NCBI RefSeq assembly: GCF_016026235.1
Contig: NZ_CP065613.1
Source: Escherichia coli
Lineage (GTDB): Bacteria; Pseudomonadota; Gammaproteobacteria; Enterobacterales; Enterobacteriaceae
Strand: one strand, 5' to 3'
DNA length: 64,000 nt
Notes under the pieces: model-generated
What the model saw: the letters and a program-made list of their open reading frames with translations, nothing else
Databases searched by the model: none
Told to the model about the DNA's origin: nothing
Part shown: one piece after another, positions 6,362-25,668 of the stretch
How positions within the stretch are numbered: position 1 is the stretch's first letter
Layout of the letters: every line of letters begins with the position of its first letter
Position numbers and translations under genes: made by a program

Positions 6362-7177
<816 letters not shown>

Positions 7178-7281
7178 ATCAGCATACTTGTCCTTAGCCT
7201 TCTGCAGTGACAGCTGGTAGTACAGCGTGCTTCTGGCCAGCCCTGCAGCCTTTAACAGGTCAGACTGGCAGTGTCCGCACT

Positions 7282-7812
7282 TCAGGCTCTGGATGACTTT
7301 CGTTTTTTCTCCAGCTCCTGGCGCTTTTTTTCCAGGAGATGCTCCTGCATGGCTTTCAGATATGCATTTTCTGCGCGAAGATAACGCAGCTCATTCTTCA
7401 TCTCTTCCGGCGTCATGTTTCCCTCGTTTTCATGGGTATCATCAGAACGGGTCATGCTTTTCTCCTTCCTGCGCCTGATAAAGGCCTCATTACCAGATTT
7501 GCGGTAGCCTTTTATCCAGTTTTTAACCATGTTGTGGCTGAGAATGTTAAACCGGGCAGCTACCCGGGGTAGAGACTCAGAATGCCCGAGAGCATAAAGA
7601 ACCACGCAAAGTTTATCTTCAGGAGAATAGCTACGCTTGTGTCTGCAATCCAGTGCCTGAGGACCGTGAAGAAGAAAAAGATTAATCCAGTGTGAGAGGC
7701 TGGTGTGAGAAAGTTGAAAGAGTTTTGCCGTAGAAATGATGCCTGCATGACCGGCCAGGTAATGATTTACAGCGGCAAGTTTTACTTCAAATGAATGTTT
7801 CATAAACTGCAC
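7282..7812 (-). CDS. insJ: IS150 OrfA (HTH DNA-binding protein)
   Basis: 176 aa ORF MKHSFEVKLAAVNHYLAGHAGIISTAKLFQLSHTSLSHWINLF... recognised as IS150 InsJ. Confidence 0.9.
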   Translation of the reverse strand: MQFMKHSFEVKLAAVNHYLAGHAGIISTAKLFQLSHTSLSHWINLFLLHGPQALDCRHKRSYSPEDKLCVVLYALGHSESLPRVAARFNILSHNMVKNWIKGYRKSGNEAFIRRRKEKSMTRSDDTHENEGNMTPEEMKNELRYLRAENAYLKAMQEHLLEKKRQELEKKRKSSRA

Positions 7813-7908
7813 CTTCAGATGTCAGATTATGTCCAACATTTGGGGTGCAGTTCATGGCGCGTCTTATCAGGCCTAAAGGGATTTCTAACTCATTGATAAA
7901 TTTTTTTT

Positions 7909-10885: not shown

Positions 10886-12088
10886 TTATCCCATCCCACT
10901 CATCGCATCGCCTAAATGGAAAATTGGCAGATACATCGCCACCACCAGCGTACCGATAATTCCTCCCGTTATGATCAGCAACGCCGGTTCCAGTAAGGCT
11001 GCTAGGTTATCCGCCAGCGCCATTGTGTTATCCCGATGATGATGGGCGAGGTTGTCTAACATGAGATCCAGCGAGCCGGAGGCCTCTCCTGTTCTCACTA
11101 ATTGCAAACAGAGCGGGCTAAACTCACCGGTATTTTTTAGCGCCAGCCAGATGGGAAGACCGTTACTGATATCGTGCTGGATTTGTGTCAGAAGTTGCAC
11201 CCAGTACGGGCAGCGCATTGTTTCTCTGACGCTCTCTACGCCCTGTAAAAAAGTAATGCCTGCACTTTGTGTCAGCGCCAGAATCGTAAAGATCTGCGTG
11301 AGTTTTTGTCCCCGCATCAGTGAGCCCATAATCGGGATGTGTAACAGCAATTTCTGCCGCACGATAAGCCAGGTCGGTCGGCGCATCAGCAACTTATTGG
11401 CTATCGCCAGCAGAAAGCCGAACAACACCAGCAGCCAGCCCCATTCGCCACTAAAGTCTGCCAGCGTCATGATCCCCTGCGTTAGTGCCGGTAGTGGGGT
11501 GTTGAAGGTCTTATATATAGCGGCAAACTCCGGCAGAACAAAATGCAGCATTGCCACAACCACCATGATTGCCATCGCTAAAATGATGATGGGATAACGC
11601 AACGCTGATTTCACTTTGTCGGTCAACTGACGCTGGGCTTTTTGCTGACGCGCCAGTTCAAAGCAGCATTCATCCAGCTTACCGGTCAGTTCACCCGTGC
11701 GGATCATCGCCTGATAGAGCGGCGGAAATACCTCTGACCAGGGTAATAAGGCATTGGAAAAGGCAATGCCCTGTTCGAGATCGTGTGCCAGAGATTGCAG
11801 CAACGCTTGCCATTGCTTACTGGGATGCTGTTCCGCCAGCAGTGCCAGCCCTTCAGAAAGCGTTAACCCGGCTTTAAGTAGCGTCGCCAGTTGATGAATG
11901 ACTTCCGCGCTTTTATCTCCTCGCCACTGCGCAGAATTGATAGCAATTCGCTTCAGGCTTAGTGGAGTAACCATCTGTTGCTGTAGTGCCATGAGCAGCA
12001 AAGCACGGCTCTCTGCCCATAGCATCCCATCTTGCGCATTGCCGTCGCCGGTTATGCCATGCCAGCGCCAGAGTTGCTTACTCGCCAT
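10886..12088 (-). CDS. hofC: Type IV pilus / T2SS GspF-family inner membrane platform protein HofC
   Basis: 400 aa membrane ORF, GspF/PilC-like, in hofB-hofC-ppdD context. Confidence 0.88.
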   Translation of the reverse strand: MASKQLWRWHGITGDGNAQDGMLWAESRALLLMALQQQMVTPLSLKRIAINSAQWRGDKSAEVIHQLATLLKAGLTLSEGLALLAEQHPSKQWQALLQSLAHDLEQGIAFSNALLPWSEVFPPLYQAMIRTGELTGKLDECCFELARQQKAQRQLTDKVKSALRYPIIILAMAIMVVVAMLHFVLPEFAAIYKTFNTPLPALTQGIMTLADFSGEWGWLLVLFGFLLAIANKLLMRRPTWLIVRQKLLLHIPIMGSLMRGQKLTQIFTILALTQSAGITFLQGVESVRETMRCPYWVQLLTQIQHDISNGLPIWLALKNTGEFSPLCLQLVRTGEASGSLDLMLDNLAHHHRDNTMALADNLAALLEPALLIITGGIIGTLVVAMYLPIFHLGDAMSGMG

Positions 12089-13463
12089 GCGGCATCCCCA
12101 GTACGCGGATTAACTCTTCAAAGGTGGTTAAGCCTTGCTCCACGGCCAGGCAGCCGTTTTCAAAAAGCGTACGCATACCCGCCTGTCGTGCGTGCGTTTC
12201 CAGCGATTCAACGTCGGTATTAGCGGAAATAAGCTGACGAATGACCGGCGTTATGGGCAGAACTTCAAATAAGGCCGTACGACCATAAAAACCGTGGTAG
12301 CAATGTACACAACCGGGTGCCTGCCAGTGGGGCAGCGGCGACGGCCATACATTGACTGGAATATGGATGGGCTCCCCTTGCTGCTGGCGACAATGTGGGC
12401 AAAGTTTACGTACCAGACGCTGGGCTATTACCAGCGTAAGCGCTGATGAGAGCATCCAGCGGGCGACTCCCATTTGCTGTAAACGTACCAGCGTTTCGCA
12501 GGTGGAATTAGTGTGTAGGGTAGACAACACCAGGTGACCAGTTTGCGCCGCTTTAATAGCGATCTCTGCTGTTTCGCCATCGCGGATCTCTCCGATCATG
12601 ATGACGTCAGGATCCTGGCGCAATAACGCACGCAAAACGCCCTGAAAGGTGAGTCCTGCACGCGGATGGATTTGCGTCTGGTTTAGTCCGGCTATGGGGA
12701 TTTCAACCGGATCTTCGACGCTACAAATATTAATGTCAGCGGTATTCAGCTTTTGCAGGGCACTATAAAGCGTGACCGTTTTGCCGCTGCCGGTAGGGCC
12801 AGTTACCAGCACCAGTCCCTGTGGTTGTTGCAAGGCATGAGCAAAGTCCGCCAGTTGTAACGGCTGCATTCCAAGCGTGTTGACATCCAGTGCCTGACTC
12901 ACCTGCTGTAACAACCTTAATACCACCTTTTCACCACCCCGACATGGTAAGGTCGCAATACGAAATGAGACGGCGTTTCCTGCCAGTTCGACAGTGAATT
13001 GCCCGTCCTGCGGCAGGCGATGTTCCGCAATATCCAGGTTTCCCAGCACTTTTAATCTGGCGGTTAATGCGACTCCGGCATCCGGTGAAACATCCGGTAA
13101 AGGATGCAATACGCCGTCGATACGCAAGCGGATGCGGTAGGCATTGTCCGCTGGTTCGATATGAATATCAGATGCGCGTTGTTCCAGCGCAGATTGTAAC
13201 GTTCGAGTCAGCAACTCTGCTTTGGGCTGATGCTTCTCCTGAACAGCTACGGGCAATGTCTGTTGTGTGCGACTGGCGTGACCTTCCATTTGTTGGCGCG
13301 TCCAGCAGGTGATCTCAATACGTTTGGTGGTAGCGAAATGCAATGCGTCCAGTAGCTCATGCGAAGGTGCATCGACTACCGCAACATGAACCACCTCTTC
13401 GCTGGCATCCAGCAAGACTCCATGATAACGCAGACACAGGGCAGTGAGCTGTGGAATATTCAT
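12078..13463 (-). CDS. hofB: Type IV pilus assembly ATPase HofB (GspE/PilB family)
   Basis: 461 aa ORF with Walker A LVTGPTGSGKT and GspE signatures. Confidence 0.9.
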   Translation of the reverse strand: MNIPQLTALCLRYHGVLLDASEEVVHVAVVDAPSHELLDALHFATTKRIEITCWTRQQMEGHASRTQQTLPVAVQEKHQPKAELLTRTLQSALEQRASDIHIEPADNAYRIRLRIDGVLHPLPDVSPDAGVALTARLKVLGNLDIAEHRLPQDGQFTVELAGNAVSFRIATLPCRGGEKVVLRLLQQVSQALDVNTLGMQPLQLADFAHALQQPQGLVLVTGPTGSGKTVTLYSALQKLNTADINICSVEDPVEIPIAGLNQTQIHPRAGLTFQGVLRALLRQDPDVIMIGEIRDGETAEIAIKAAQTGHLVLSTLHTNSTCETLVRLQQMGVARWMLSSALTLVIAQRLVRKLCPHCRQQQGEPIHIPVNVWPSPLPHWQAPGCVHCYHGFYGRTALFEVLPITPVIRQLISANTDVESLETHARQAGMRTLFENGCLAVEQGLTTFEELIRVLGMPHGE

Positions 13464-16499: not shown

Positions 16500-16528
16500 T
16501 GCCCGGCGATATACACCGGGCATTGTAA

Positions 16529-17479
16529 TCAGTAAGTCTCCGCAGGAGGGATGCCAAAGTCAGGCATCCCACTTTCATCCCAGCGAATCAATTTTAAGCG
16601 CGTATGGCGATTAGGATCGTACAGTGGATCGCCTTCTATTTCGGTGTAATTACGTGCGTGGTAGACCAGCACATCCTCACCCTCGGGCGTTTGGGTAAAA
16701 CTGTTATGTCTGGGGCCATACTGGCGATTTTCATAGCTGGTCGAAAAGACCGGACGCGGCGATTTATGCCAGTTCTCAGGCACTCTCGGGTCAGCGTCGA
16801 TGTCTATCCACAATAACCCCATGCAGTAGTTCTCGTCGGTAGCGCTGGCTGAGTAGCTGATGAATAACCGCTCGCCATGCATCACGACAGCCGGACCTTC
16901 ATTGACCCAGAATCCGCGACATTCCCAGTCATACTCCGGTTTGCTCAACATCACCGGCTCGCCTTTGATCGTCCACGGATTTTCCATTTCGGCCAGGTAA
17001 ATATTGGAGTTCCCGGCGATATCCGGTGCTTTTTGCGCCCACAAATACCACTGTTTACCCTGATGGTGAAAAGTGGTGGCATCCAGGGCAAAAGTATCAA
17101 ATGGTGTTTTAACTTGTCCTTTTTCAATCCACGTTCCGCTGAGCGGATCGGCATCACAACATTCAAGGGCAAACATCCGGTGCTGAAACATCCCCAGTTT
17201 GTCGAGCGCCTGAGTATGGGTGGCGGCAAAATAGATATACCACCGACCTGCAATATGATGCAGCTCCGGCGCCCAGATAAGTTCGCTCATGGGGCCGCTT
17301 TGCGGTTTACGCCACACCACGACAGGCGTGGCGCTGCGCAGCCCGACGAGCGAGTCTGCCCGGCGAATTTCCAGCCGGTCGTACTCCGGCACCGAGGCGA
17401 TAAAATAATAGTGGTTGCCATCGCGCAGTATAAAGGGATCGGCGCGTTGCTCGATAAATGGATTCGGCCAGTCTTGCAT
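16529..17479 (-). CDS. GH43-like glycoside hydrolase (predicted beta-xylosidase/arabinofuranosidase-type); accessory relative to K-12
   Basis: 316 aa ORF with ADPF and WAPE motifs typical of the five-bladed propeller GH43 clan; start overlaps the upstream transporter stop. Confidence 0.65.
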   Translation of the reverse strand: MQDWPNPFIEQRADPFILRDGNHYYFIASVPEYDRLEIRRADSLVGLRSATPVVVWRKPQSGPMSELIWAPELHHIAGRWYIYFAATHTQALDKLGMFQHRMFALECCDADPLSGTWIEKGQVKTPFDTFALDATTFHHQGKQWYLWAQKAPDIAGNSNIYLAEMENPWTIKGEPVMLSKPEYDWECRGFWVNEGPAVVMHGERLFISYSASATDENYCMGLLWIDIDADPRVPENWHKSPRPVFSTSYENRQYGPRHNSFTQTPEGEDVLVYHARNYTEIEGDPLYDPNRHTRLKLIRWDESGMPDFGIPPAETY

Positions 17480-18873
17480 TAGGCTTTCCTTACTGTTTCT
17501 ACAGCGTTTATTTCCTGATAGTCATTCAGTTCGCGGTAATTGGTGCGACGTTTTTCCAGATCGGTCTGGATGCGTTTCATCAGTTCGCGGTCTACTTTCA
17601 GTAGGCGGACGACGCCTGCGGTAATCAGATAGCCCACCCCAGGAATGACGGTAAAGAGCAGTACAATACCGTTAATCGCCGTGGCGCTTTGGGCTTTCGC
17701 ACCGGCATCGTAGCCGTACCATGAGAGCAGAAAGCCCACCATCGCCCCGGCAATGGCCAGGCCCAGTTTGAGGAAGAAAAGGTTACCGGAGAAGCTGATG
17801 CCGGTGATGCGTTTACCGGTTTTCCATTCGCCGTAGTCGTCGACGTCTGCCATCAGCGACCAGTGCAGCGGGGAGGGGATCTGGTGCAGAATGTTGAGCA
17901 CCACAATCATCACCGTGGCGTGCGGATTAAAGAAATAAAAGGCGCAGGAGAAAATTGCCAGCGCGATGTTGGTCCAGAAAAAGACTTTCAGTTTGCACCA
18001 GCGGTCGGTTAACACTTTCGCCAACATACTGCCGATCATCATTCCGACAACGCCGAGGCTAATAAAGAGGGTTGCAAACTGAGTACTCTCACCCATTACC
18101 CAGGTGACATAGTACATGGTTGCCGCCATGCGGATAAATCCAGGGCAGACGTTGCACAAGGTGAGCAGCAGAATGCGCACCCACTGATCGTTTTTCCAGA
18201 CATCTTTAAAATCGTTCTTCATGTCGTCATGGGTTTGTACCGCCGGGCGAATGCGCTCACGAACCGTGGCGAAACAGAACAAAAACATACACATACCGAT
18301 GATTGCCAGCACGGTCATAGCCAGCTGATACCCTTTCGCTTTGTCGCCGCCGCCAAATAGATCCACCATCGGCAATAGCGTCAGCGAGAGCAGAAGGGTA
18401 GCGATGCCCACCATCACAAAACGGTACGACTGGCAGGCCACGCGCTCTTGTGGGTCATTAGTAATCACGCCACCTAACGAGCAGTAAGGAATGTTAATGG
18501 CGGTATAGGTCAGGGAGAGCAGGAAATAGGTAACAAAGGCATAGATAACCTTGCTGCTATAGCTCCATTCTGGCGTGGTAAACATCAGGATGCTGAATAG
18601 CGCGTAGGGGAAGGCAATCCACAATAGCCAGGGACGAAAACGACCATATTTGCTTTGGGTGCGGTCGGCAATGGCCCCCATAATAGGGTCAGTGACGGCA
18701 TCGATAACCCGTACAGAGAGCAGTAATACGCCAACGAGTGCCGGGGCCAGACCAAAAATATCCGTATAAAAATAGTTAACAAACAGCATGATAGCGCCAA
18801 AGATGATGTTGCATCCTGCGTCGCCCATCCCGTAGCCGATCTTTTCTCTTACTGATAATTTACTGCTATTCAT
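17479..18873 (-). CDS. Glycoside-pentoside-hexuronide (GPH) family sugar:cation symporter
   Basis: 464 aa polytopic membrane ORF with MelB/GPH-like N-terminus GYGMGDAGCNIIFGAIMLFVNYFYTD. Confidence 0.75.
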   Translation of the reverse strand: MNSSKLSVREKIGYGMGDAGCNIIFGAIMLFVNYFYTDIFGLAPALVGVLLLSVRVIDAVTDPIMGAIADRTQSKYGRFRPWLLWIAFPYALFSILMFTTPEWSYSSKVIYAFVTYFLLSLTYTAINIPYCSLGGVITNDPQERVACQSYRFVMVGIATLLLSLTLLPMVDLFGGGDKAKGYQLAMTVLAIIGMCMFLFCFATVRERIRPAVQTHDDMKNDFKDVWKNDQWVRILLLTLCNVCPGFIRMAATMYYVTWVMGESTQFATLFISLGVVGMMIGSMLAKVLTDRWCKLKVFFWTNIALAIFSCAFYFFNPHATVMIVVLNILHQIPSPLHWSLMADVDDYGEWKTGKRITGISFSGNLFFLKLGLAIAGAMVGFLLSWYGYDAGAKAQSATAINGIVLLFTVIPGVGYLITAGVVRLLKVDRELMKRIQTDLEKRRTNYRELNDYQEINAVETVRKA

Positions 18874-19031
18874 AGAGAAGACTCCCCATCAAGTGATGAG
18901 GATAATTATTCGCTCGCTATGGATAAATTGCGTTGCAGGATAACGCCGCTGATATGGATAAAATCGCTTTGCACGGAAAAGTGTGAGGCAGGTAACAACC
19001 CTCACCCTGTACGGGTGAGGGCGTAGAGAGA

Positions 19032-20405
19032 TTAATGCGCTTTTACGGCTTTGGCGGTTTTCTCTTTAAACAGATAGCCGATACCTAACACGATCAGCCA
19101 TACCGGGATCAGGTATACCGAAATCGCCATTCCTGGGGTCATCAGCATAATCACCAGTACCGCCGCCATAAACAGCAGGCAGATCCAGTTACCCAGCGGA
19201 TAAAGCAGAGCAGGGAAGCGAGTTACCACGCCTTGTTCCTGCTTGGCGCGACGGAATTTCATATGCGCCAGGCTAATCATCGCCCAGTTGATCACCAGTG
19301 CAGATACCACCAGTGCCATTAACAGGCCAAATGCGGATTCCGGAGCAAGATAGTTAATCAATACGCACAATGCTGTAACCAGCGCAGACACCAGAATGGT
19401 GTTAACCGGTACGCCGCGTTTATCGACAGACGCCAGCGCTTTTGGCGCATTACCCTGTTGTGCCAGACCAAACAGCATACGGCTGTTGCAATATACGCAG
19501 CTGTTGTACACGGAGAGCGCCGCAGTCAGTACCACGATGTTCAGCGCATTCGCCACAAAGGTATCGCCTAACTCGTGGAAGATCAGCACAAACGGACTGG
19601 TATCGGCGGTAACGCGGGTCCACGGCATCAGTGAGAGCAGAACGGCTAACGAACCAATATAGAAAATCAGGATGCGGTAGATAACCTGGTTAGTTGCTTT
19701 CGGGATACTTTGCTCCGGGTTATCAGCTTCTGCTGCGGTGATCCCCACCAGTTCCAGACCACCGAACGAGAACATGATAATCGCCATCATCATCACCAGC
19801 CCGGTGAAGCCGTGCGGCAGGAAACCACCCTGATCCCACAGGTTGCTAACGCTTGCCTGCGGACCGCCGTTACCACTGAACAGCAGCCAGCCGCCGAAGA
19901 TGATCATCGCTACTACCGCAATAACTTTGATAATGGCAAACCAGAACTCCATCTCACCAAACACTTTTACGTTGGTCAGGTTGATGGCGTTAATCACCAC
20001 AAAGAACACGGCGGCAGAAACCCAGGTTGGGATTTCCGGATACCAGAACTGAATGTATTTACCCACGGCAGTCAGCTCTGCCATGGCAACTAAAACGTAC
20101 AGTACCCAGTAGTTCCAGCCAGAGGCGAAACCGGCAAAACTGCCCCAGTATTTATAAGCAAAGTGGCTAAAGGAGCCTGCGACAGGTTCTTCGACCACCA
20201 TTTCACCCAGCTGACGCATGATCAGAAAGGCGATAAAACCAGCAATGGCGTATCCCAGGATAATCCCTGGCCCTGCGGACTGTATTACGGAGGCGCTACC
20301 CAGGAATAGCCCTGTCCCTATCGCGCCACCCAGCGCGATAAGCTGAATATGGCGGTTTTTAAGGCCGCGCTTTAGCTGCTCGCCGTGCTGTTGACCTTCC
20401 ATCAT
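19032..20405 (-). CDS. aroP: Aromatic amino acid permease AroP
   Basis: 457 aa APC-family permease MMEGQQHGEQLKRGLKNRHIQLIALGGAIGTGLF. Confidence 0.95.
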   Translation of the reverse strand: MMEGQQHGEQLKRGLKNRHIQLIALGGAIGTGLFLGSASVIQSAGPGIILGYAIAGFIAFLIMRQLGEMVVEEPVAGSFSHFAYKYWGSFAGFASGWNYWVLYVLVAMAELTAVGKYIQFWYPEIPTWVSAAVFFVVINAINLTNVKVFGEMEFWFAIIKVIAVVAMIIFGGWLLFSGNGGPQASVSNLWDQGGFLPHGFTGLVMMMAIIMFSFGGLELVGITAAEADNPEQSIPKATNQVIYRILIFYIGSLAVLLSLMPWTRVTADTSPFVLIFHELGDTFVANALNIVVLTAALSVYNSCVYCNSRMLFGLAQQGNAPKALASVDKRGVPVNTILVSALVTALCVLINYLAPESAFGLLMALVVSALVINWAMISLAHMKFRRAKQEQGVVTRFPALLYPLGNWICLLFMAAVLVIMLMTPGMAISVYLIPVWLIVLGIGYLFKEKTAKAVKAH

Positions 20406-20982
20406 GAAACCTCGTGCGGTGATTGTTTTTTTGATCTACGCAGTGATGCGTGTGTAAGTTTGCAATTCCGTTTGTTGTATTGATTTCTTTACGTTTCATG
20501 TAACTGAATTATGATAATGCTACTTTTAACTATCACAAGATAATGGTATGTGCCCGGGAATGCACCTGCTTTATGTAGATGCGTTGATTTTTTGGATAAA
20601 AAAAAACCAATTGTAAGTTTTTTTCACATTTTATAGATACTTTAAGTAGGATAACATGCTGTTTTAACTAGCTATACTTGTCATTCTTCAAGTTACATGT
20701 GCTGCAACTCGAATTATTTAGAGTATATAAACCGGATTTATTTGCCTGCTGAACAACATGCCTTAGGTACCAGCACGATAATCTTACGAAATGCCATATA
20801 AAAATAAATAGATGTTAATAATGCAGTGGGCTTGTAACGTAAGTATTTAAATATAATATTGCGAGATGAGTGAAAACGTTAAGTAATAGAAATAATTTTT
20901 CATTAAAAGCGTTTATAATTGATCGAGAAATAAGTTTTCTATTTAATGGAAATAAGTTAAGGATAAACGGGAATAAAATAAA

Positions 20983-22764
20983 GTGAGCGATATTGTTTAC
21001 CTGAGAATAATCGGTGAGAAGCAGGGCGATATTTCTTCAGGCTGTGGGACGTATGCGTCGGTTGGTAATCGCTGGCAGGTTGGCCATGAAGATGAAATTT
21101 TTGCCTTTGCACTCACCAACGCCATTACCAGTACTGGTAATGGCGTTAATCTACAGGGGCTACAATTTTGCAAACTCATTGATAAAAGCTCACCGCTACT
21201 GTCTAATGCCATCAATCAGAATGAGCGGTTATTTATTGAAATCGATTTGTATCGTATAAATAAAAGCGGGCGCTGGGAACGGTATTATTATATTCAGCTA
21301 AGAAATGCTTCATTAACTGCTATTCATGTAAACATTTCTGACAATAATCTTCCTACCGAATGTGTAACTGTCGATTATCACTACATATTATGTAAACATC
21401 TAATAGCCAATACGGAATTTGACTGGTTGGCCTTTCCTGCTGGCTATAATAGCTTATTTATTCCGCCTAAAAGCCCACCTGCCAGTAATCTTAAGCCTGA
21501 ACCTCTACCAGTTGTTAACCTTCCACTCTCTTCACCAGCGGTTAACCCGGTCTATGCCAAATCCTGTCTGAAGGAGAAGGGATGTACAGATGCTGGAACG
21601 GCAGAAGAACCCGCTGAAAACTTCGGTCAAGTAGCGATTTTTGCTCAGCCAGTGGTTGATGACTGCTGTGGATACCACCATCCCGAGGCTAACGATGTCG
21701 GGCAACCCGCAGAAGCTCAAACCATGCTACTGTTTCCGGGTAGTGTGTTGGCGGCTCAAATATGGGGAAAATGGTCGCTCAGTGGCATACTCAGTGCAAC
21801 CCGCGGCTCTTACATCGGTGCGTTGGCATCTGCTTTGTATATTCCCTCTGCGGGCGAGGGCAGTGCTCGCGTGCTCGGACGTGATGAGTTCTGGTATGAG
21901 GAAGAACTGCGGCAGAAAGCACTAGCAGGCAGTACCGCCACCACCCGGGTACGTTTTTTCTGGGGAACTGATATTCACGGCAAGCCTCAGGTGTATGGTG
22001 TTCATACGGGTGAAGGTACGCCGTATGAAAACGTCCGCGTGGCGAACATGCAGTGGAACGAGCAGACGCAGCGTTATGAATTTACCCCCGCTCACGATGT
22101 CGATGGCCCCCTGATTACCTGGACGCCGGAAAATCCGGAACATGGGAATGTTCCGGGCCATACCGGTAACGACAGGCCGCCGCTGGATCAGCCCACCATT
22201 CTGGTGACGCCGATTCCGGACGGTACAGATACCTATACCACGCCGCCATTCCCGGTTCCTGATCCGAAAGAATTCAACGATTATATTCTGGTTTTTCCGG
22301 CGGGATCCGGTATTAAGCCCATCTATGTTTACCTGAAGGAGGATCCGCGAAAGCTGCCTGGTGTTGTAACAGGGCGCGGCGTCCCGCTTTCATCAGGAAC
22401 TCGCTGGCTGGATATGTCGGTATCCAATAACGGCAACGGCGCGCCAATCCCGGCGCATATTGCTGATAAATTGCGCGGACGGGAGTTTAAAACCTTTGAT
22501 GAGTTTCGCGAGGCGCTGTGGCTGGAGGTGAGTCAGGATCCGGAGTTGATAGCGCAGTTTTCAAGTGGTAACCAAACACGTATAAAACAAGGATTAACCG
22601 CAAAAGCACCTATTGACGGTTGGCATTATGGCCCTAAAGAAATAGTTAAAAAATTCCAGATACATCATCGTGTTGCAATTGAATATGGCGGCAGCGTATA
22701 CGATATTGATAATTTACGAATTGTTACCCCCAGACTACACGATGAGATTCACTACAGGAGATAA
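20983..22764 (+). CDS. Hcp (T6SS tube protein) fused to a C-terminal colicin E9-type HNH DNase domain (Hcp-ET class effector)
   Basis: N-terminal ~165 aa Hcp-like (LRIIGEKQGDISSG, GHEDE, SPLLSNAI, QLRNASLTAIHV); Pro-rich linker; C-terminal ~130 aa alignable with colicin E9 DNase (GAPIPAHIADKLRGREFKTFDEFREALWLEVSQDPEL ... HHRVAIEYGGSVYDIDNLRIVTPRLHDEIH); GTG start in an AT-rich leader. Confidence 0.85.
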   Translation: MSDIVYLRIIGEKQGDISSGCGTYASVGNRWQVGHEDEIFAFALTNAITSTGNGVNLQGLQFCKLIDKSSPLLSNAINQNERLFIEIDLYRINKSGRWERYYYIQLRNASLTAIHVNISDNNLPTECVTVDYHYILCKHLIANTEFDWLAFPAGYNSLFIPPKSPPASNLKPEPLPVVNLPLSSPAVNPVYAKSCLKEKGCTDAGTAEEPAENFGQVAIFAQPVVDDCCGYHHPEANDVGQPAEAQTMLLFPGSVLAAQIWGKWSLSGILSATRGSYIGALASALYIPSAGEGSARVLGRDEFWYEEELRQKALAGSTATTRVRFFWGTDIHGKPQVYGVHTGEGTPYENVRVANMQWNEQTQRYEFTPAHDVDGPLITWTPENPEHGNVPGHTGNDRPPLDQPTILVTPIPDGTDTYTTPPFPVPDPKEFNDYILVFPAGSGIKPIYVYLKEDPRKLPGVVTGRGVPLSSGTRWLDMSVSNNGNGAPIPAHIADKLRGREFKTFDEFREALWLEVSQDPELIAQFSSGNQTRIKQGLTAKAPIDGWHYGPKEIVKKFQIHHRVAIEYGGSVYDIDNLRIVTPRLHDEIHYRR

Positions 22765-22766
22765 AT

Positions 22767-23051
22767 ATGTTTAAAGAAAAGCTCCAGGATTATACCGAGG
22801 ATGAATTTCTTAATTTTTTAGGCGGATTGAGATCATCTATGAAAGATGGAAAATCCTTAAAAGGTAAGGAGCTAGAAATGTACTGGGATTCATTAGTAGA
22901 TCATTTTATTGAAATTACACAGCATCCGTCAGGGAGCGATCTAATTTTCTACCCTAAAAGTCAAGGAGATGATAAGCCTGAAAACATCCTGAAAATTGTC
23001 AAAGAATGGCGGCGTTCACAGGGGTTACCCTTGTTTAAAGACTCTAAATAA
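22767..23051 (+). CDS. Colicin-DNase immunity protein (Im9-like), cognate to the Hcp-DNase
   Basis: 94 aa; DYTEDEFLNFL ... ITQHPSGSDLIFYP ... resembles Im9 (DYTEAEFL ... TEHPSGSDLIYYP); starts 3 nt after the toxin stop. Confidence 0.85.
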   Translation: MFKEKLQDYTEDEFLNFLGGLRSSMKDGKSLKGKELEMYWDSLVDHFIEITQHPSGSDLIFYPKSQGDDKPENILKIVKEWRRSQGLPLFKDSK

Positions 23052-23204
23052 AGTAGATAATAAAACTATATATGGAACATCATCGCATCTGGCTAATGCG
23101 ATGATATTAATGACATAAAATAATAATGTGATTGCTCTTAAAAAACAGGTAAAAATACTGAAGCCTCATTAGGTTATTTTATCATTTTCCCGCTTTTACC
23201 GATA

Positions 23205-23458
23205 CCCTTTGGCTGGAGGTGAGTCAGTATCCGGAGTTGATAGCGCAGTTTTCAAGCGGTAATCAAACACGTATAAAACAAGGATTAATCGCAAAAGCAC
23301 CACTTGAAGGTTGGCATTATGGCACTAAAGAAATCGTTAAAAAATTCCACATGGATCATCGTGTTGCGATTGAATATAGTGGCGGAATTTACGATATTGA
23401 TAATTTAAGGAGGGCACACCTCATTTGCATGATGAAATTTATTACAGGAGATAGTTAA
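23205..23458 (+). pseudogene. Orphan HNH-DNase C-terminal fragment, no Hcp or linker, frameshifted at the 3' end
   Basis: Homology to the primary toxin begins abruptly at WLEVSQYPELIAQFSSGNQTRIKQGL...; the final HDEIYYRR motif is out of frame. Confidence 0.7.
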
Positions 23459-23749
23459 ATGTATAATTTTAAAGATAAAATAGAAGATTACACAGAGCGG
23501 GAATTCATTGAGTTGCTTGGCGAGTTTACAAATCCAACCGGGGATAACGCTCAATTAAAAGGGGAAGAGCTTGACAAATATTGGGATGATCTAGAAGAAC
23601 ATCTTACCAGAATTACACAACATCCGTTGATGAGCGATCTTATCTACTATCCTGCAAAGAAGGGAGATGATGAACCTGAAAACATCCTGAAAATTGTCAA
23701 AGAATGGCGGCGTTCACAGGGGCTACCCTTGTTTAAAGACTCTAAATAA
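23459..23749 (+). CDS. Orphan Im9-like immunity protein (variant 2)
   Basis: 96 aa; divergent N-terminal half, C-terminal PENILKIVKEWRRSQGLPLFKDSK identical to immunity 1. Confidence 0.8.
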   Translation: MYNFKDKIEDYTEREFIELLGEFTNPTGDNAQLKGEELDKYWDDLEEHLTRITQHPLMSDLIYYPAKKGDDEPENILKIVKEWRRSQGLPLFKDSK

Positions 23750-23901
23750 AGTAGATAATAAAACTATATATGGAACATCATCGCGTCTGGCTAATGCGAT
23801 GATGTTAATAACATAAAATAATAATGTGGGTGCTCTTAATAAACAGGTAAAATACTGAAATCTCATTAGGTTATTTTATCAATTTCCCGCTTTCACCGAT
23901 A

Positions 23902-24152
23902 CCCTTTGGCTGGAGGTGAGTCAGTATCCGGAGTTGATAGCGCAGTTTTCAACTGGTAACCAAACACGTATAAAACAAGGATTAATCGCAAAAGCGCCTC
24001 TTGAAGGTTGGCATTATGGATCTAAGGAAATTGTTGAAGAATTCCATATATATCATAGTGTTGCGATTGAATGTGGTGGCGAAATTTATTATATTGATAA
24101 TTAAAGGATTGTTACGTCTCGACTACATGATGAAATTCACTACAGGAGATAA
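23902..24152 (+). pseudogene. Orphan HNH-DNase C-terminal fragment with premature stop (TTA to TAA) before the terminal catalytic His motif
   Basis: WLEVSQYPELIAQFSTGNQTRIKQGLIAKAPLEGWHYGSKEIVEEFHIYHSVAIECGGEIYYIDN-stop, then in-frame RIVTSRLHDEIHYRR. Confidence 0.7.
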
Positions 24153-24448
24153 TGTATATGCATGATTTAAAATATAAAATATATTTTTACACAGAAGGTG
24201 AATTTCTTGAAATGCTTGAGGAGATAGTAAATGCAACTAGCAAAGATAAATCCCTAAAAGGGAAAAAATTAGAAAAATATCTCGATACCTTAGTGGATCA
24301 TTTCATTAAAATTACTGAACATCCTAAAAAGGGAGATCCCATTTTCTATCCTAATTCCCCAGAAGATGGTAAACCTGAAAACATCCTGAAAATCGTCAAA
24401 GAATGGCGGCGTTCGCAAGGATTGCCTTTGTTCAAAGATTCAGAATGA
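24152..24448 (+). CDS. Orphan Im9-like immunity protein (variant 3)
   Basis: 98 aa; conserved C-terminal PENILKIVKEWRRSQGLPLFKDSE, divergent N-terminal half. Confidence 0.8.
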   Translation: MYMHDLKYKIYFYTEGEFLEMLEEIVNATSKDKSLKGKKLEKYLDTLVDHFIKITEHPKKGDPIFYPNSPEDGKPENILKIVKEWRRSQGLPLFKDSE

Positions 24449-24855
24449 ACTCTAAACAGAATCTGTCACCTGAAAATCATCACGTTCTGGTTAAGTGATG
24501 ATTTTCGCTACGAGAAGGTTACGGTGGCGATTGTAGTGATAATAAGCAATGTAAAAAGAAAACATAGGTAAATACTACCTTTCTCTCCTTCCCTGAACAT
24601 TCATTTTACATATTAATTCACATAATTGAATTGTTATGCGTTTTGTTGCTTGGTGAATCGGTTCAGAGGAAATATTTTTTCGTTTCAATTCTGTTAATCT
24701 CACCCCTTGATGGGTAAATTTAACATTTGTGCATAGTTACAACTTTGAAACGTTATATATGTCAAGTTGTTAAAATGTGCACAGTTTCATGATTTCAATC
24801 AAAACCTGTATGGACATAAGGTGAATACTTTGTTACTTTAGCGTCACAGACATGA

Positions 24856-24872
24856 AATTGGTAAGACCAATT
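24856..24872. promoter_or_regulatory. PdhR operator palindrome AATTGGTAAGACCAATT
   Basis: Perfect inverted repeat matching the PdhR box, ~30 bp upstream of the pdhR start. Confidence 0.8.
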
Positions 24873-24903
24873 GACTTCGGCAAGTGGCTTAAGACAGGAA
24901 CTC

Positions 24904-25668
24904 ATGGCCTACAGCAAAATCCGCCAACCAAAACTCTCCGATGTGATTGAGCAGCAACTGGAGTTTTTGATCCTCGAAGGCACTCTCCGCCCGGGCGAAA
25001 AACTCCCACCGGAACGCGAACTGGCAAAACAGTTTGACGTCTCCCGTCCCTCCTTGCGTGAGGCGATTCAACGTCTCGAAGCGAAGGGCTTGTTGCTTCG
25101 TCGCCAGGGTGGCGGCACTTTTGTCCAGAGCAGCCTATGGCAAAGCTTCAGCGATCCGCTGGTGGAGCTGCTCTCCGACCATCCTGAGTCACAGTATGAC
25201 TTGCTCGAAACACGACACGCCCTGGAAGGTATCGCCGCTTATTACGCCGCGCTGCGTAGTACCGATGAAGACAAGGAACGCATCCGTGAACTCCATCACG
25301 CCATAGAACTGGCGCAGCAGTCTGGCGATCTGGACGCGGAATCAAACGCCGTACTCCAGTATCAGATTGCTGTCACTGAAGCGGCCCACAATGTGGTTCT
25401 GCTTCATCTGCTAAGGTGTATGGAGCCGATGTTGGCCCAGAATGTCCGCCAGAACTTCGAATTGCTCTATTCGCGTCGCGAGATGCTGCCGCTGGTGAGT
25501 AGTCACCGCACCCGCATATTTGAAGCGATTATGGCCGGTAAGCCGGAAGAAGCGCGCGAAGCATCGCATCGCCATCTGGCCTTTATCGAAGAAATTTTGC
25601 TCGACAGAAGTCGTGAAGAGAGCCGCCGTGAGCGTTCTCTGCGTCGTCTGGAGCAACGAAAGAATTAG
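24904..25668 (+). CDS. pdhR: Pyruvate dehydrogenase complex repressor PdhR (GntR family)
   Basis: 254 aa from [26 protein letters not shown]...; the ORF track adds 11 upstream codons. Confidence 0.95.

Follow-up and report, generated by a model that had tools for sequence, protein, structure and literature searches.

Two orphan DNase-tip/immunity modules at the hcp-et3-4 polymorphic-toxin locus of Escherichia coli, probably shuffled by homologous recombination

In the nuclease colicins, the specificity of a DNase for its immunity protein resides in DNase residues ~72-98 and in helix II of the immunity protein, and colicin E plasmids may carry additional immunity genes, such as that for E8 on ColE3-CA38 and that for E5 on ColE9-J. 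At rhs and cdiA loci, 5'-truncated toxin tips with short homology to the main gene are reportedly each followed by an immunity gene. Here we analysed a 64,000-nucleotide (nt) stretch of the Escherichia coli chromosome (RefSeq assembly GCF_016026235.1, contig NZ_CP065613.1; hereafter the window), in which positions 23052-24448, behind hcp-et3-4, a type VI secretion system (T6SS) toxin gene, and its adjoining immunity gene, hold two orphan modules with dead DNase remnants and intact immunity genes. With a probability of roughly 0.8, we read this segment as the distal part of the known hcp-et3-4 polymorphic-toxin locus, in which two orphan modules were shuffled by homologous recombination and immunity was kept against related toxins.

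The locus and its three immunity genes have already been published, and systems of this kind are familiar. The effector Hcp-ET3-4 is UTI89_C0121 (Ma et al. 2017, Virulence 8:1189, as summarised in PMC6730261 and PMC12466380), and its cluster occurs in phylogroups B2 and F (PMC12466380). A T6SS effector function was reported for it, as was T6SS-dependent delivery for related Hcp-ETs, and E. coli is listed among the species with "orphan immunity genes" (PMC6730261). All three UTI89 immunity proteins reportedly neutralise the toxin (PMC6730261), so these genes are not purely "orphan". The reviews of the UTI89 locus (PMC6730261, PMC12466380) omit the dead fragments, the mosaicism and the permuted arrays described below, some of which Ma et al. 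2017 may hold. A report on orphan bacteriocin immunity genes of E. coli (PMC12546727) was set aside, as it concerns plasmids and not the hcp-et3-4 locus.

In Vibrio cholerae, T6SS clusters carry immunity arrays 3' of the effector, sometimes with the shifted 3' end of an old effector, and these were explained by module replacement with frequent homologous recombination, giving protection against kin that retain the old effector (PMC5361080). Orphan immunity genes are arrayed 3' of the effector here too. Unlike in V. cholerae, all modules belong to one family (colicin DNase/immunity) with conserved boundaries, so that ordinary homologous recombination and unequal crossing-over would suffice, and exchange also took place inside modules, apparently uncoupling the immunity-binding stretch from the immunity gene. 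The non-identical tandem immunity paralogues EsaG/TsaI of the Staphylococcus type VII secretion system also evolve by homologous recombination (PMC9484751); they belong to unrelated families and another secretion system, and no toxin remnants are described between the genes.

The window locus lies between aroP (19032-20405, minus strand) and pdhR (24871-25668), and is chromosomal in every carrier genome. It agrees with the UTI89 locus in its aroP-pdhR site, in its Hcp, Pyocin_S and colicin-DNase toxin, and in the same three immunity genes. The primary toxin gene, hcp-et3-4 (annotated tssD; 20983-22764, plus strand), is a single-frame open reading frame (ORF) of 593 amino acids (aa) with the locus and architecture of UTI89_C0121. 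Its N-terminus matched T6SS_HCP at residues 28-139 and also PF05638 in Pfam, and residues 1-146 matched TIGR03344 in NCBIfam (124.7 bits against a cut-off of 58.9). Pyocin_S covered residues 309-450, and Col-Pyo_DNase (PF21431) covered residues 460-591 at the C-terminus (E 5.9e-42; both Pfam). An Hcp/TssD N-terminal domain and a C-terminal toxin are joined in one 593-aa frame, the arrangement of an Hcp-ET. In the PDB, the DNase domain matched the DNases of colicins E9, E7 and E2 and of pyocins AP41 and S2 (E ~1e-28 for E9, E7 and AP41), and the catalytic and metal histidines (H102, H103, H127 and H131 of colicin E9) are intact (QIHH ... RLH ... EIH). No T6SS cluster was present in the annotated stretch from lpxC to hpt (window ~1500-44600), the part looked at. 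The DNase and immunity folds are those of colicin E9/Im9 and E7/Im7, and, as on colicin E plasmids, additional non-cognate immunity genes stand behind the cognate one. In contrast to those plasmids, this locus is chromosomal, its toxin is T6SS-delivered according to the literature, and it comprises 2-5 tandem units with toxin remnants.

Adjoining the toxin gene is immunity gene A (22767-23051, plus strand; an Im7/Im9-like ORF of 94 aa, MFKEKL...). The segment 23052-24448 then consists of two repeat units of ~698 bp, each made up of a spacer (150 bp), an inactivated toxin 3' end of ~246 nt and a complete PF01320 immunity gene. ORFs, alignments and a repeat search all agreed with the initial annotation, which had described two orphan cassettes with decayed nuclease remnants and intact immunity genes. 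In the DNA-level alignment that it had proposed as a check, the three units (including the primary one) could be aligned over ~700 nt with a mean column identity of 84%. The repeat search returned three-copy families of 260 and 298 nt with a spacing of 691-699 nt and identities of 64-90%; these families are far above chance, and their copies are too diverged for assembly duplication.

Remnant 1 (23210-23458, plus strand; the slot before immunity gene B) holds the immunity-binding stretch and an HNH motif, and remnant 2 (23907-24152, plus strand; the slot before immunity gene C) is a mosaic. Both were delimited by alignment to the primary toxin and colicin E9, and both are inactivated. They start at TGGCTGGAGGTGAGTCAG (WLEVSQ), the abrupt shared junction of the initial annotation, and continue with Y where the primary toxin has D. 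Their homology to the primary gene is 96% across the first 50 nt from WLEVSQ, and they have no Hcp or Pyocin_S part. Each unit is a 5'-truncated tip without a delivery domain of its own, which is what defines an orphan module. The toxin-derived stretch is longer than the ~55 codons first estimated: it comprises the full last 81 codons to the old stop, of which 66-67 precede the lesion. Remnant 1 lost one nucleotide directly after DNLR (~23411; alignment column 245), causing a -1 frameshift that is identical in every strain examined, and in remnant 2 TTA became TAA at 24102-24104, at the L of DNLR. These two lesions, already named in the initial annotation, fall before H127, and the colicin E9 alignment added further ones: in place of the HH motif (E9 H102/H103), remnant 1 has DH and remnant 2 YH, and remnant 1 also has Y for the last histidine (E9 H131). 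By their lesions, the remnants are pseudogene fragments, not nucleases. The "HNH endonuclease" annotations of remnant 2 in some genomes, taken up as candidate intact copies, proved to be the same 62-aa truncated ORF renamed.

Immunity gene B (23459-23749, plus strand; 96 aa, MYNFKD...) and immunity gene C (24152-24448, plus strand; 98 aa, MYMHDLKYK..., or 96 aa from the RefSeq start ATG at 24158) are intact ORFs. A, B and C are all Im7/Im9-like (PF01320), with overall identities of 57-64%. Immunity A is 100% identical to the S88 protein and has the same accession as that of UTI89 (WP_000471928.1), whereas B and C are 99% identical to their UTI89 counterparts. Immunity B is 98% identical to a 1242-member PF01320 cluster and matched the AP41 immunity protein, Im7, Im8 and Im9 in the PDB at E 1e-13 to 1e-19. 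The C-terminal 24 aa, first described as identical throughout, are identical between A and B, but C matches at 23 of 24 positions and ends in E instead of K; strong differences lie before that part. In the conserved motif of helix III (D-L-I-Y/F-Y-P), a DNase-binding hot-spot in immunity proteins, A and B carry SDLIFYP/SDLIYYP and the window C carries GDPIFYP, with L replaced by P at one position. The other five type-C genes examined have leucine at this codon (codon 63, 24338-24340; GDLIFYP).

All strains inspected have intact immunity genes, which are under purifying selection, with a ratio of nonsynonymous to synonymous substitution rates (dN/dS) of 0.14-0.35 against their nearest relatives (0.17 for B against a B-like gene of the enterobacterium L010, described below). 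The remnants, by contrast, carry a fixed frameshift, a nonsense mutation and catalytic substitutions. The two parts of a unit also diverged to different degrees. Relative to the primary tip, just 4-5 residues of the remnants differ in the immunity-binding stretch (89-92% nt identity), whereas the immunity genes differ far more (62-63% nt identity in the variable part). The initial annotation had the remnants differing in the stretch that corresponds to the variable half of the immunity proteins; such differences exist, but they are much smaller than those of the immunity genes and apparently do not match the neighbouring immunity gene.

The 3.7-kb locus was found in 1058 of 5426 complete E. 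coli genomes, with query coverage of 80% or more in 1050 of them. Strain FDAARGOS_943 matches the window at 99.9% identity, and in UTI89 the layout is identical. Typing of the cassettes in twelve other E. coli loci showed that the same three immunity types recur in different orders, with a copy number of 2-4. The order is A-B-C in the window, S88 and UTI89, A'-B-C-B' in ST131 and strain 4/0, A'-B' in TUM14697, A'-C-B' in 1002W03, and A-A-B in GPEC1186. With a Nissle-type tip in first position, it is C-A-B (N/C-A-B) in Nissle 1917 and JA0257, and C-B-C (N/C-B-C) in MCJCHV-1. The binding stretch on the full-length gene was of the ST131 type in 552 genomes, of the window type in ~243 and of the Nissle type in 263 (52%, 23% and 25% of the locus-bearing genomes), counts that are biased to heavily sequenced clones such as ST131.

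Modules that are orphans in one strain occupy the expressed position in another. The full-length toxin of Nissle 1917 ends in a markedly different tip (FIKSNQNNVSQGYSPYVPEEGYYYG...), with immunity C behind it, and the variable part of the window C is 98% identical to this gene. The search for alternative tips across E. coli proposed in the initial annotation found this combination, a Nissle-type tip with immunity C on a full-length gene, in 263 complete genomes, with a binding stretch different from that of the window toxin. Conversely, module A is primary here and an orphan in Nissle 1917, whose first orphan slot holds an intact window-type tip (98% nt identity) followed by immunity A; this intact orphan A module occurred in 167 genomes at 99% identity or more and in another 13 at 95-99%. 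Module B was found on a full-length toxin only as a B-like pair (86%) at another locus and in the inactive fusion of strain NR1441. A chimeric query joining the conserved toxin part to the B cassette was used to look for a full-length B-type toxin in E. coli; its top matches were joined pieces 1392 bp apart and thus uninformative.

In NR1441 (L021 2500-4575), a single unit is left, in which the full-length gene runs into remnant B' and is followed by one immunity gene. The crossover lies within the conserved CCGGAGTTGATAGCGCAGTTTTCA, a 24-nt conserved stretch behind the junction, and the frameshift of the remnant was inherited. As far as sequence comparison goes, this is direct comparative proof of recombination between a primary gene and an orphan. 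In rhs and cdiA systems, too, the main gene can fuse to an orphan by recombination. The present locus differs in that the carrier is Hcp, the tips are all of one fold, and both window tips are catalytically dead, so that fusion would disarm the toxin instead of re-arming it. Annotations of TUM14697, 1002W03 and GPEC1186 likewise mark the primary toxin as frameshifted; together with the NR1441 fusion, this indicates that toxin loss with immunity kept recurs. In some strains, IS1 truncates the toxin gene, or the array plus pdhR (Z22-2, L007 4084-6510; AHB12, L008 4395-5092), and the insertion in Z22-2 goes together with a large deletion that extends to the yad fimbrial operon.

Crossovers at the other end of the module left a trace in the immunity genes. 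The last immunity gene of every array, whether B or C, shows the same 3' pattern of single-nucleotide polymorphisms (SNPs), namely KDSE and a unique flank, while internal copies end in KDSK and a spacer. This uniformity places the 3' crossovers within the 72 conserved nt at the end of the immunity gene. In one further E. coli locus (L030 2308-3291), the immunity genes are chimeric, with an A N-terminal part joined to a B C-terminal part and a C N-terminus joined to a B body, which fits unequal crossing-over inside immunity genes.

The divergence between units is itself mosaic, with flanks 96-100% identical and immunity cores 62-63% identical. Remnant 2 is similar to the other E. coli tips over its 5' ~190 nt and to the Nissle-type tip over its last ~58 nt. 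Compared with the primary module of Nissle 1917, unit 2 is 93% identical in the last 58 nt of the toxin gene, 98% in the immunity core and 57% in the binding stretch, the last of which is 89% identical to that of the window's own toxin. All E. coli remnants carry the window-type binding stretch, whichever immunity gene comes next; the remnants appear to have been homogenised, and an adjacent remnant is therefore no guide to the partner of an immunity protein. A similar patchwork separates the full-length toxins. Between ST131 (L002 4620-5152) and the window (22519-23051), a patch of ~100 nt in the binding stretch is 62% identical, whereas the two downstream HNH segments are 91-100% identical and the adjacent immunity genes 97% identical, an apparent uncoupling of toxin specificity from immunity. 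The initial annotation had proposed that tips were displaced by homologous recombination with retention of immunity. The occurrence of the same modules in primary and orphan positions (Nissle 1917, MCJCHV-1), the 263 genomes with C behind a full-length toxin, the NR1441 fusion and the 3' SNP pattern all speak for this proposal.

Relatives of the array were found in other genera. In Salmonella enterica subsp. salamae (L015/L016 3860-7377), the aroP-pdhR site holds a homologous Hcp-DNase toxin with five tandem immunity genes, in whose 69-bp spacers only a hairpin and the final ~20 nt of the toxin gene, with the ribosome-binding site AGGAG, remain. The core of the window C is 97-100% nt-identical to one member of this array over ~90 nt, whereas the 5' 60 nt of this gene reach 57-70% and the 3' part 83-90%, a pattern that fits inter-genus transfer of a sub-genic segment. 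At the same site, Salmonella bongori (L024 2739-5632) has a fragmented toxin, one intact 114-aa orphan DNase piece and an immunity gene; it combines an ST131-like binding stretch with an A-like immunity protein (85 of 94 residues identical to A'). Superficieibacter carries an array at a different chromosomal site, with intact 114-aa DNase fragments and immunity genes. Another enterobacterium (L010, yjcZ-proP site) has a toxin whose binding stretch is 94% nt-identical to that of the window toxin, and the sole immunity gene of this toxin is B-like, with 86% aa identity to B.

Because of the B-like pair of L010 and the A-like pair of S. bongori, the sequences suggest the pairings A with the ST131-type, B with the window-type and C with the Nissle-type toxin. 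A general co-inheritance of binding stretch and immunity was considered and dropped after a rank correlation over 11 functional pairs (given below), and only the specific close matches were kept.

The spacers preserve a trace of how the shared junction may have arisen. Spacer 1 (23052-23209, plus strand; hairpin at 23079-23105, -12.8 kcal/mol) is 93% identical to spacer 2 (23750-23906, plus strand, delimited by repeat alignment; hairpin at 23774-23806, -17.8 kcal/mol, z -3.1). The flank behind the last immunity gene (24449-24530, plus strand) folds into a strong hairpin at 24472-24506 (-23.7 kcal/mol), so that each immunity gene of the window is followed by a hairpin; by BLAST, this flank has homologues in the Salmonella aroP-pdhR array, namely its flank and the spacers between its immunity genes. 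The E. coli spacers are 82-88% identical to the inter-cassette spacers of Superficieibacter, in whose orphans toxin homology begins near GVPLS.. TRWLD, the start of the DNase domain. A pattern search of the primary toxin found two 8-nt direct repeats, TGGCTGGA, 114 nt apart in the DNase domain (22405-22412 at WLD and 22519-22526 at WLE, plus strand). In a local alignment, the last ~22 nt of spacer 1 (23188-23209) resemble the toxin directly upstream of the first repeat. Alone, this similarity is weak (142 of 2000 shuffles scored equally well), and it becomes credible only in combination with the homology between the spacer and the longer orphans of Superficieibacter. The common WLEVSQ junction is thus probably the scar of a 114-nt deletion between the TGGCTGGA repeats: a longer, Superficieibacter-like orphan would have lost the intervening segment, and the scar would have arisen once and been propagated with the unit. 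The junction is shared, as first described, but it is probably a secondary feature and not the boundary of each displacement event.

These observations can be joined in the following model. The conserved boundary of a module would lie ~45 nt past the WLEVSQ junction at the 5' end, and at the 3' end it would consist of the spacer and the final 72 nt of the immunity gene. Homologous recombination at these boundaries would swap the variable cores between strains and slots and shift tip/immunity pairs between the expressed position and the orphan slots; unequal crossing-over would expand or contract the array, and a full-length gene would occasionally fuse to a dead remnant. The immunity genes would be kept intact by their use against incoming DNase toxins of the family, which their products would bind and block, and the three immunity types of the window would together correspond to the three toxin variants circulating at this locus in E. 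coli. That the orphan genes are expressed, and in which order the events took place, is what we infer in this model.

Several points weigh against this reading. Across the 11 functional pairs, binding-stretch identity and immunity identity were uncorrelated (Spearman ~0); with no global covariation, the matching of immunity proteins to toxins rests on a few close matches, and which immunity protein blocks which toxin is a predicted specificity. DNase-immunity pairs cross-react broadly, as work on colicins E2, E7, E8 and E9 established, so the extra immunity genes might be merely redundant. The window immunity C, although intact, may be weakened by the proline in helix III. The hairpins lack a U-tract, and consensus scans of 20400-24900 found promoter-like and terminator-like sites at chance level (14 against 13.6 expected and 3 against 3.4 expected, respectively). 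The sampling bias of the genome counts belongs here too. Lastly, an identical junction and near-identical spacers are also expected of plain tandem duplication. An Rfam scan of the locus gave only sub-threshold chance matches.

An error of assembly or sequencing, with repeats collapsed or expanded, finds nothing in its favour beyond the repetitive layout, and we give it virtually no weight: the copies differ by 10-36%, and ~1050 genomes finished independently of one another share this layout, UTI89, S88 and Nissle 1917 among them. Assembly duplication of the orphan fragments, named in the initial annotation as an outcome that would overturn its reading, is excluded by this divergence together with the recurrence of the locus among complete genomes. 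A biological duplication deserves more attention. The toxin 3' end and its immunity gene may have been duplicated in tandem in situ and then diverged, the extra copies serving as dosage or back-up against the cell's own toxin. The shared junction, the 93%-identical spacers and the regular ~698-bp spacing of both units agree with this, as do the closeness of the E. coli remnants to the binding stretch of the window toxin (89-92% nt identity) and the neutralisation of the toxin by all three immunity proteins (Ma et al. 2017, per PMC6730261). Uniform divergence, however, does not predict the strong mosaicism between flanks and cores. Nor does it account for the 98% identity of C to the partner of a very different full-length tip in 263 genomes, for a C core nearly identical to a Salmonella gene, or for a full-length toxin, encoded at another locus, whose sole immunity gene is B-like. 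The slots probably go back to duplication, which cannot explain what they contain and which we consider unlikely as the whole explanation.

A further possibility, which we hold at less than even odds, is that the units are not fossils but a working reservoir from which segments of the binding stretch, which are still intact, can be copied into the expressed gene, the matching immunity being in place beforehand. The window toxin would have taken its binding stretch from the B-type unit, or have it in common with that unit, B being the true partner of the window toxin and A a leftover of an ST131-type toxin. In its favour, the window and ST131 toxins differ essentially only in the ~100-nt patch (62% identity) while their adjacent immunity genes are 97% identical, and this patch is the one shared at 94% nt identity with the L010 toxin and its single B-like immunity gene (86%). 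The S. bongori combination of an ST131-like stretch with an A-like protein (85 of 94 residues) points the same way, and NR1441 proves that recombination between primary gene and orphan happens. On the other hand, these are a few cases of adjacency set against a lack of global covariation, the data do not fix the direction of transfer, and A may protect well against both binding stretches. Moreover, because the HNH part is dead in both window remnants, an active toxin could arise only through partial conversion tracts. Shuffling of orphan modules by homologous recombination with retained immunity therefore remains our preferred explanation. Within it, we propose only tentatively, and with somewhat more doubt than belief, that the array provides pan-immunity and, as a buffer, allows the specificity of the toxin to change. 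A, B and C would then each neutralise one variant, with B the partner of the window and UTI89 toxin and A left over; most lineages would be mutually immune, and the window and UTI89 toxin would have exchanged only its immunity-binding patch for a B-type one.

Some features of the neighbourhood were recorded beside the locus. Between ampE and aroP (window ~16518-18874, minus strand), there are a gene of glycoside hydrolase family 43 (GH43) and one for a sugar symporter of the GPH family; the pair is missing at this position in S88, UTI89, ST131 and Nissle. In Salmonella, a matching MFS_2 transporter adjoins aroP, and S. salamae also shows a partly visible GH43 gene there. Transfer from the near-identical FDAARGOS_943 places an IS3-family transposase between mutT and yacG and identifies gspE (hofB) as a truncated pseudogene (window ~6473-7821 and 12073-13452).

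The array reveals no new kind of system. It is a clean and very common case of polymorphic-toxin locus evolution, present in about one in five complete E. coli genomes, including ST131, ST95, ST73 and Nissle 1917, and it involves the colicin DNase/immunity pair, the best-understood protein-protein specificity system in bacteria. If the one-to-one map of immunity proteins to toxin variants is true, it would predict between which of the major extraintestinal E. coli lineages killing by this effector is possible and between which it is not, and the locus would be a natural case of a toxin changing its specificity under the cover of pre-existing immunity.

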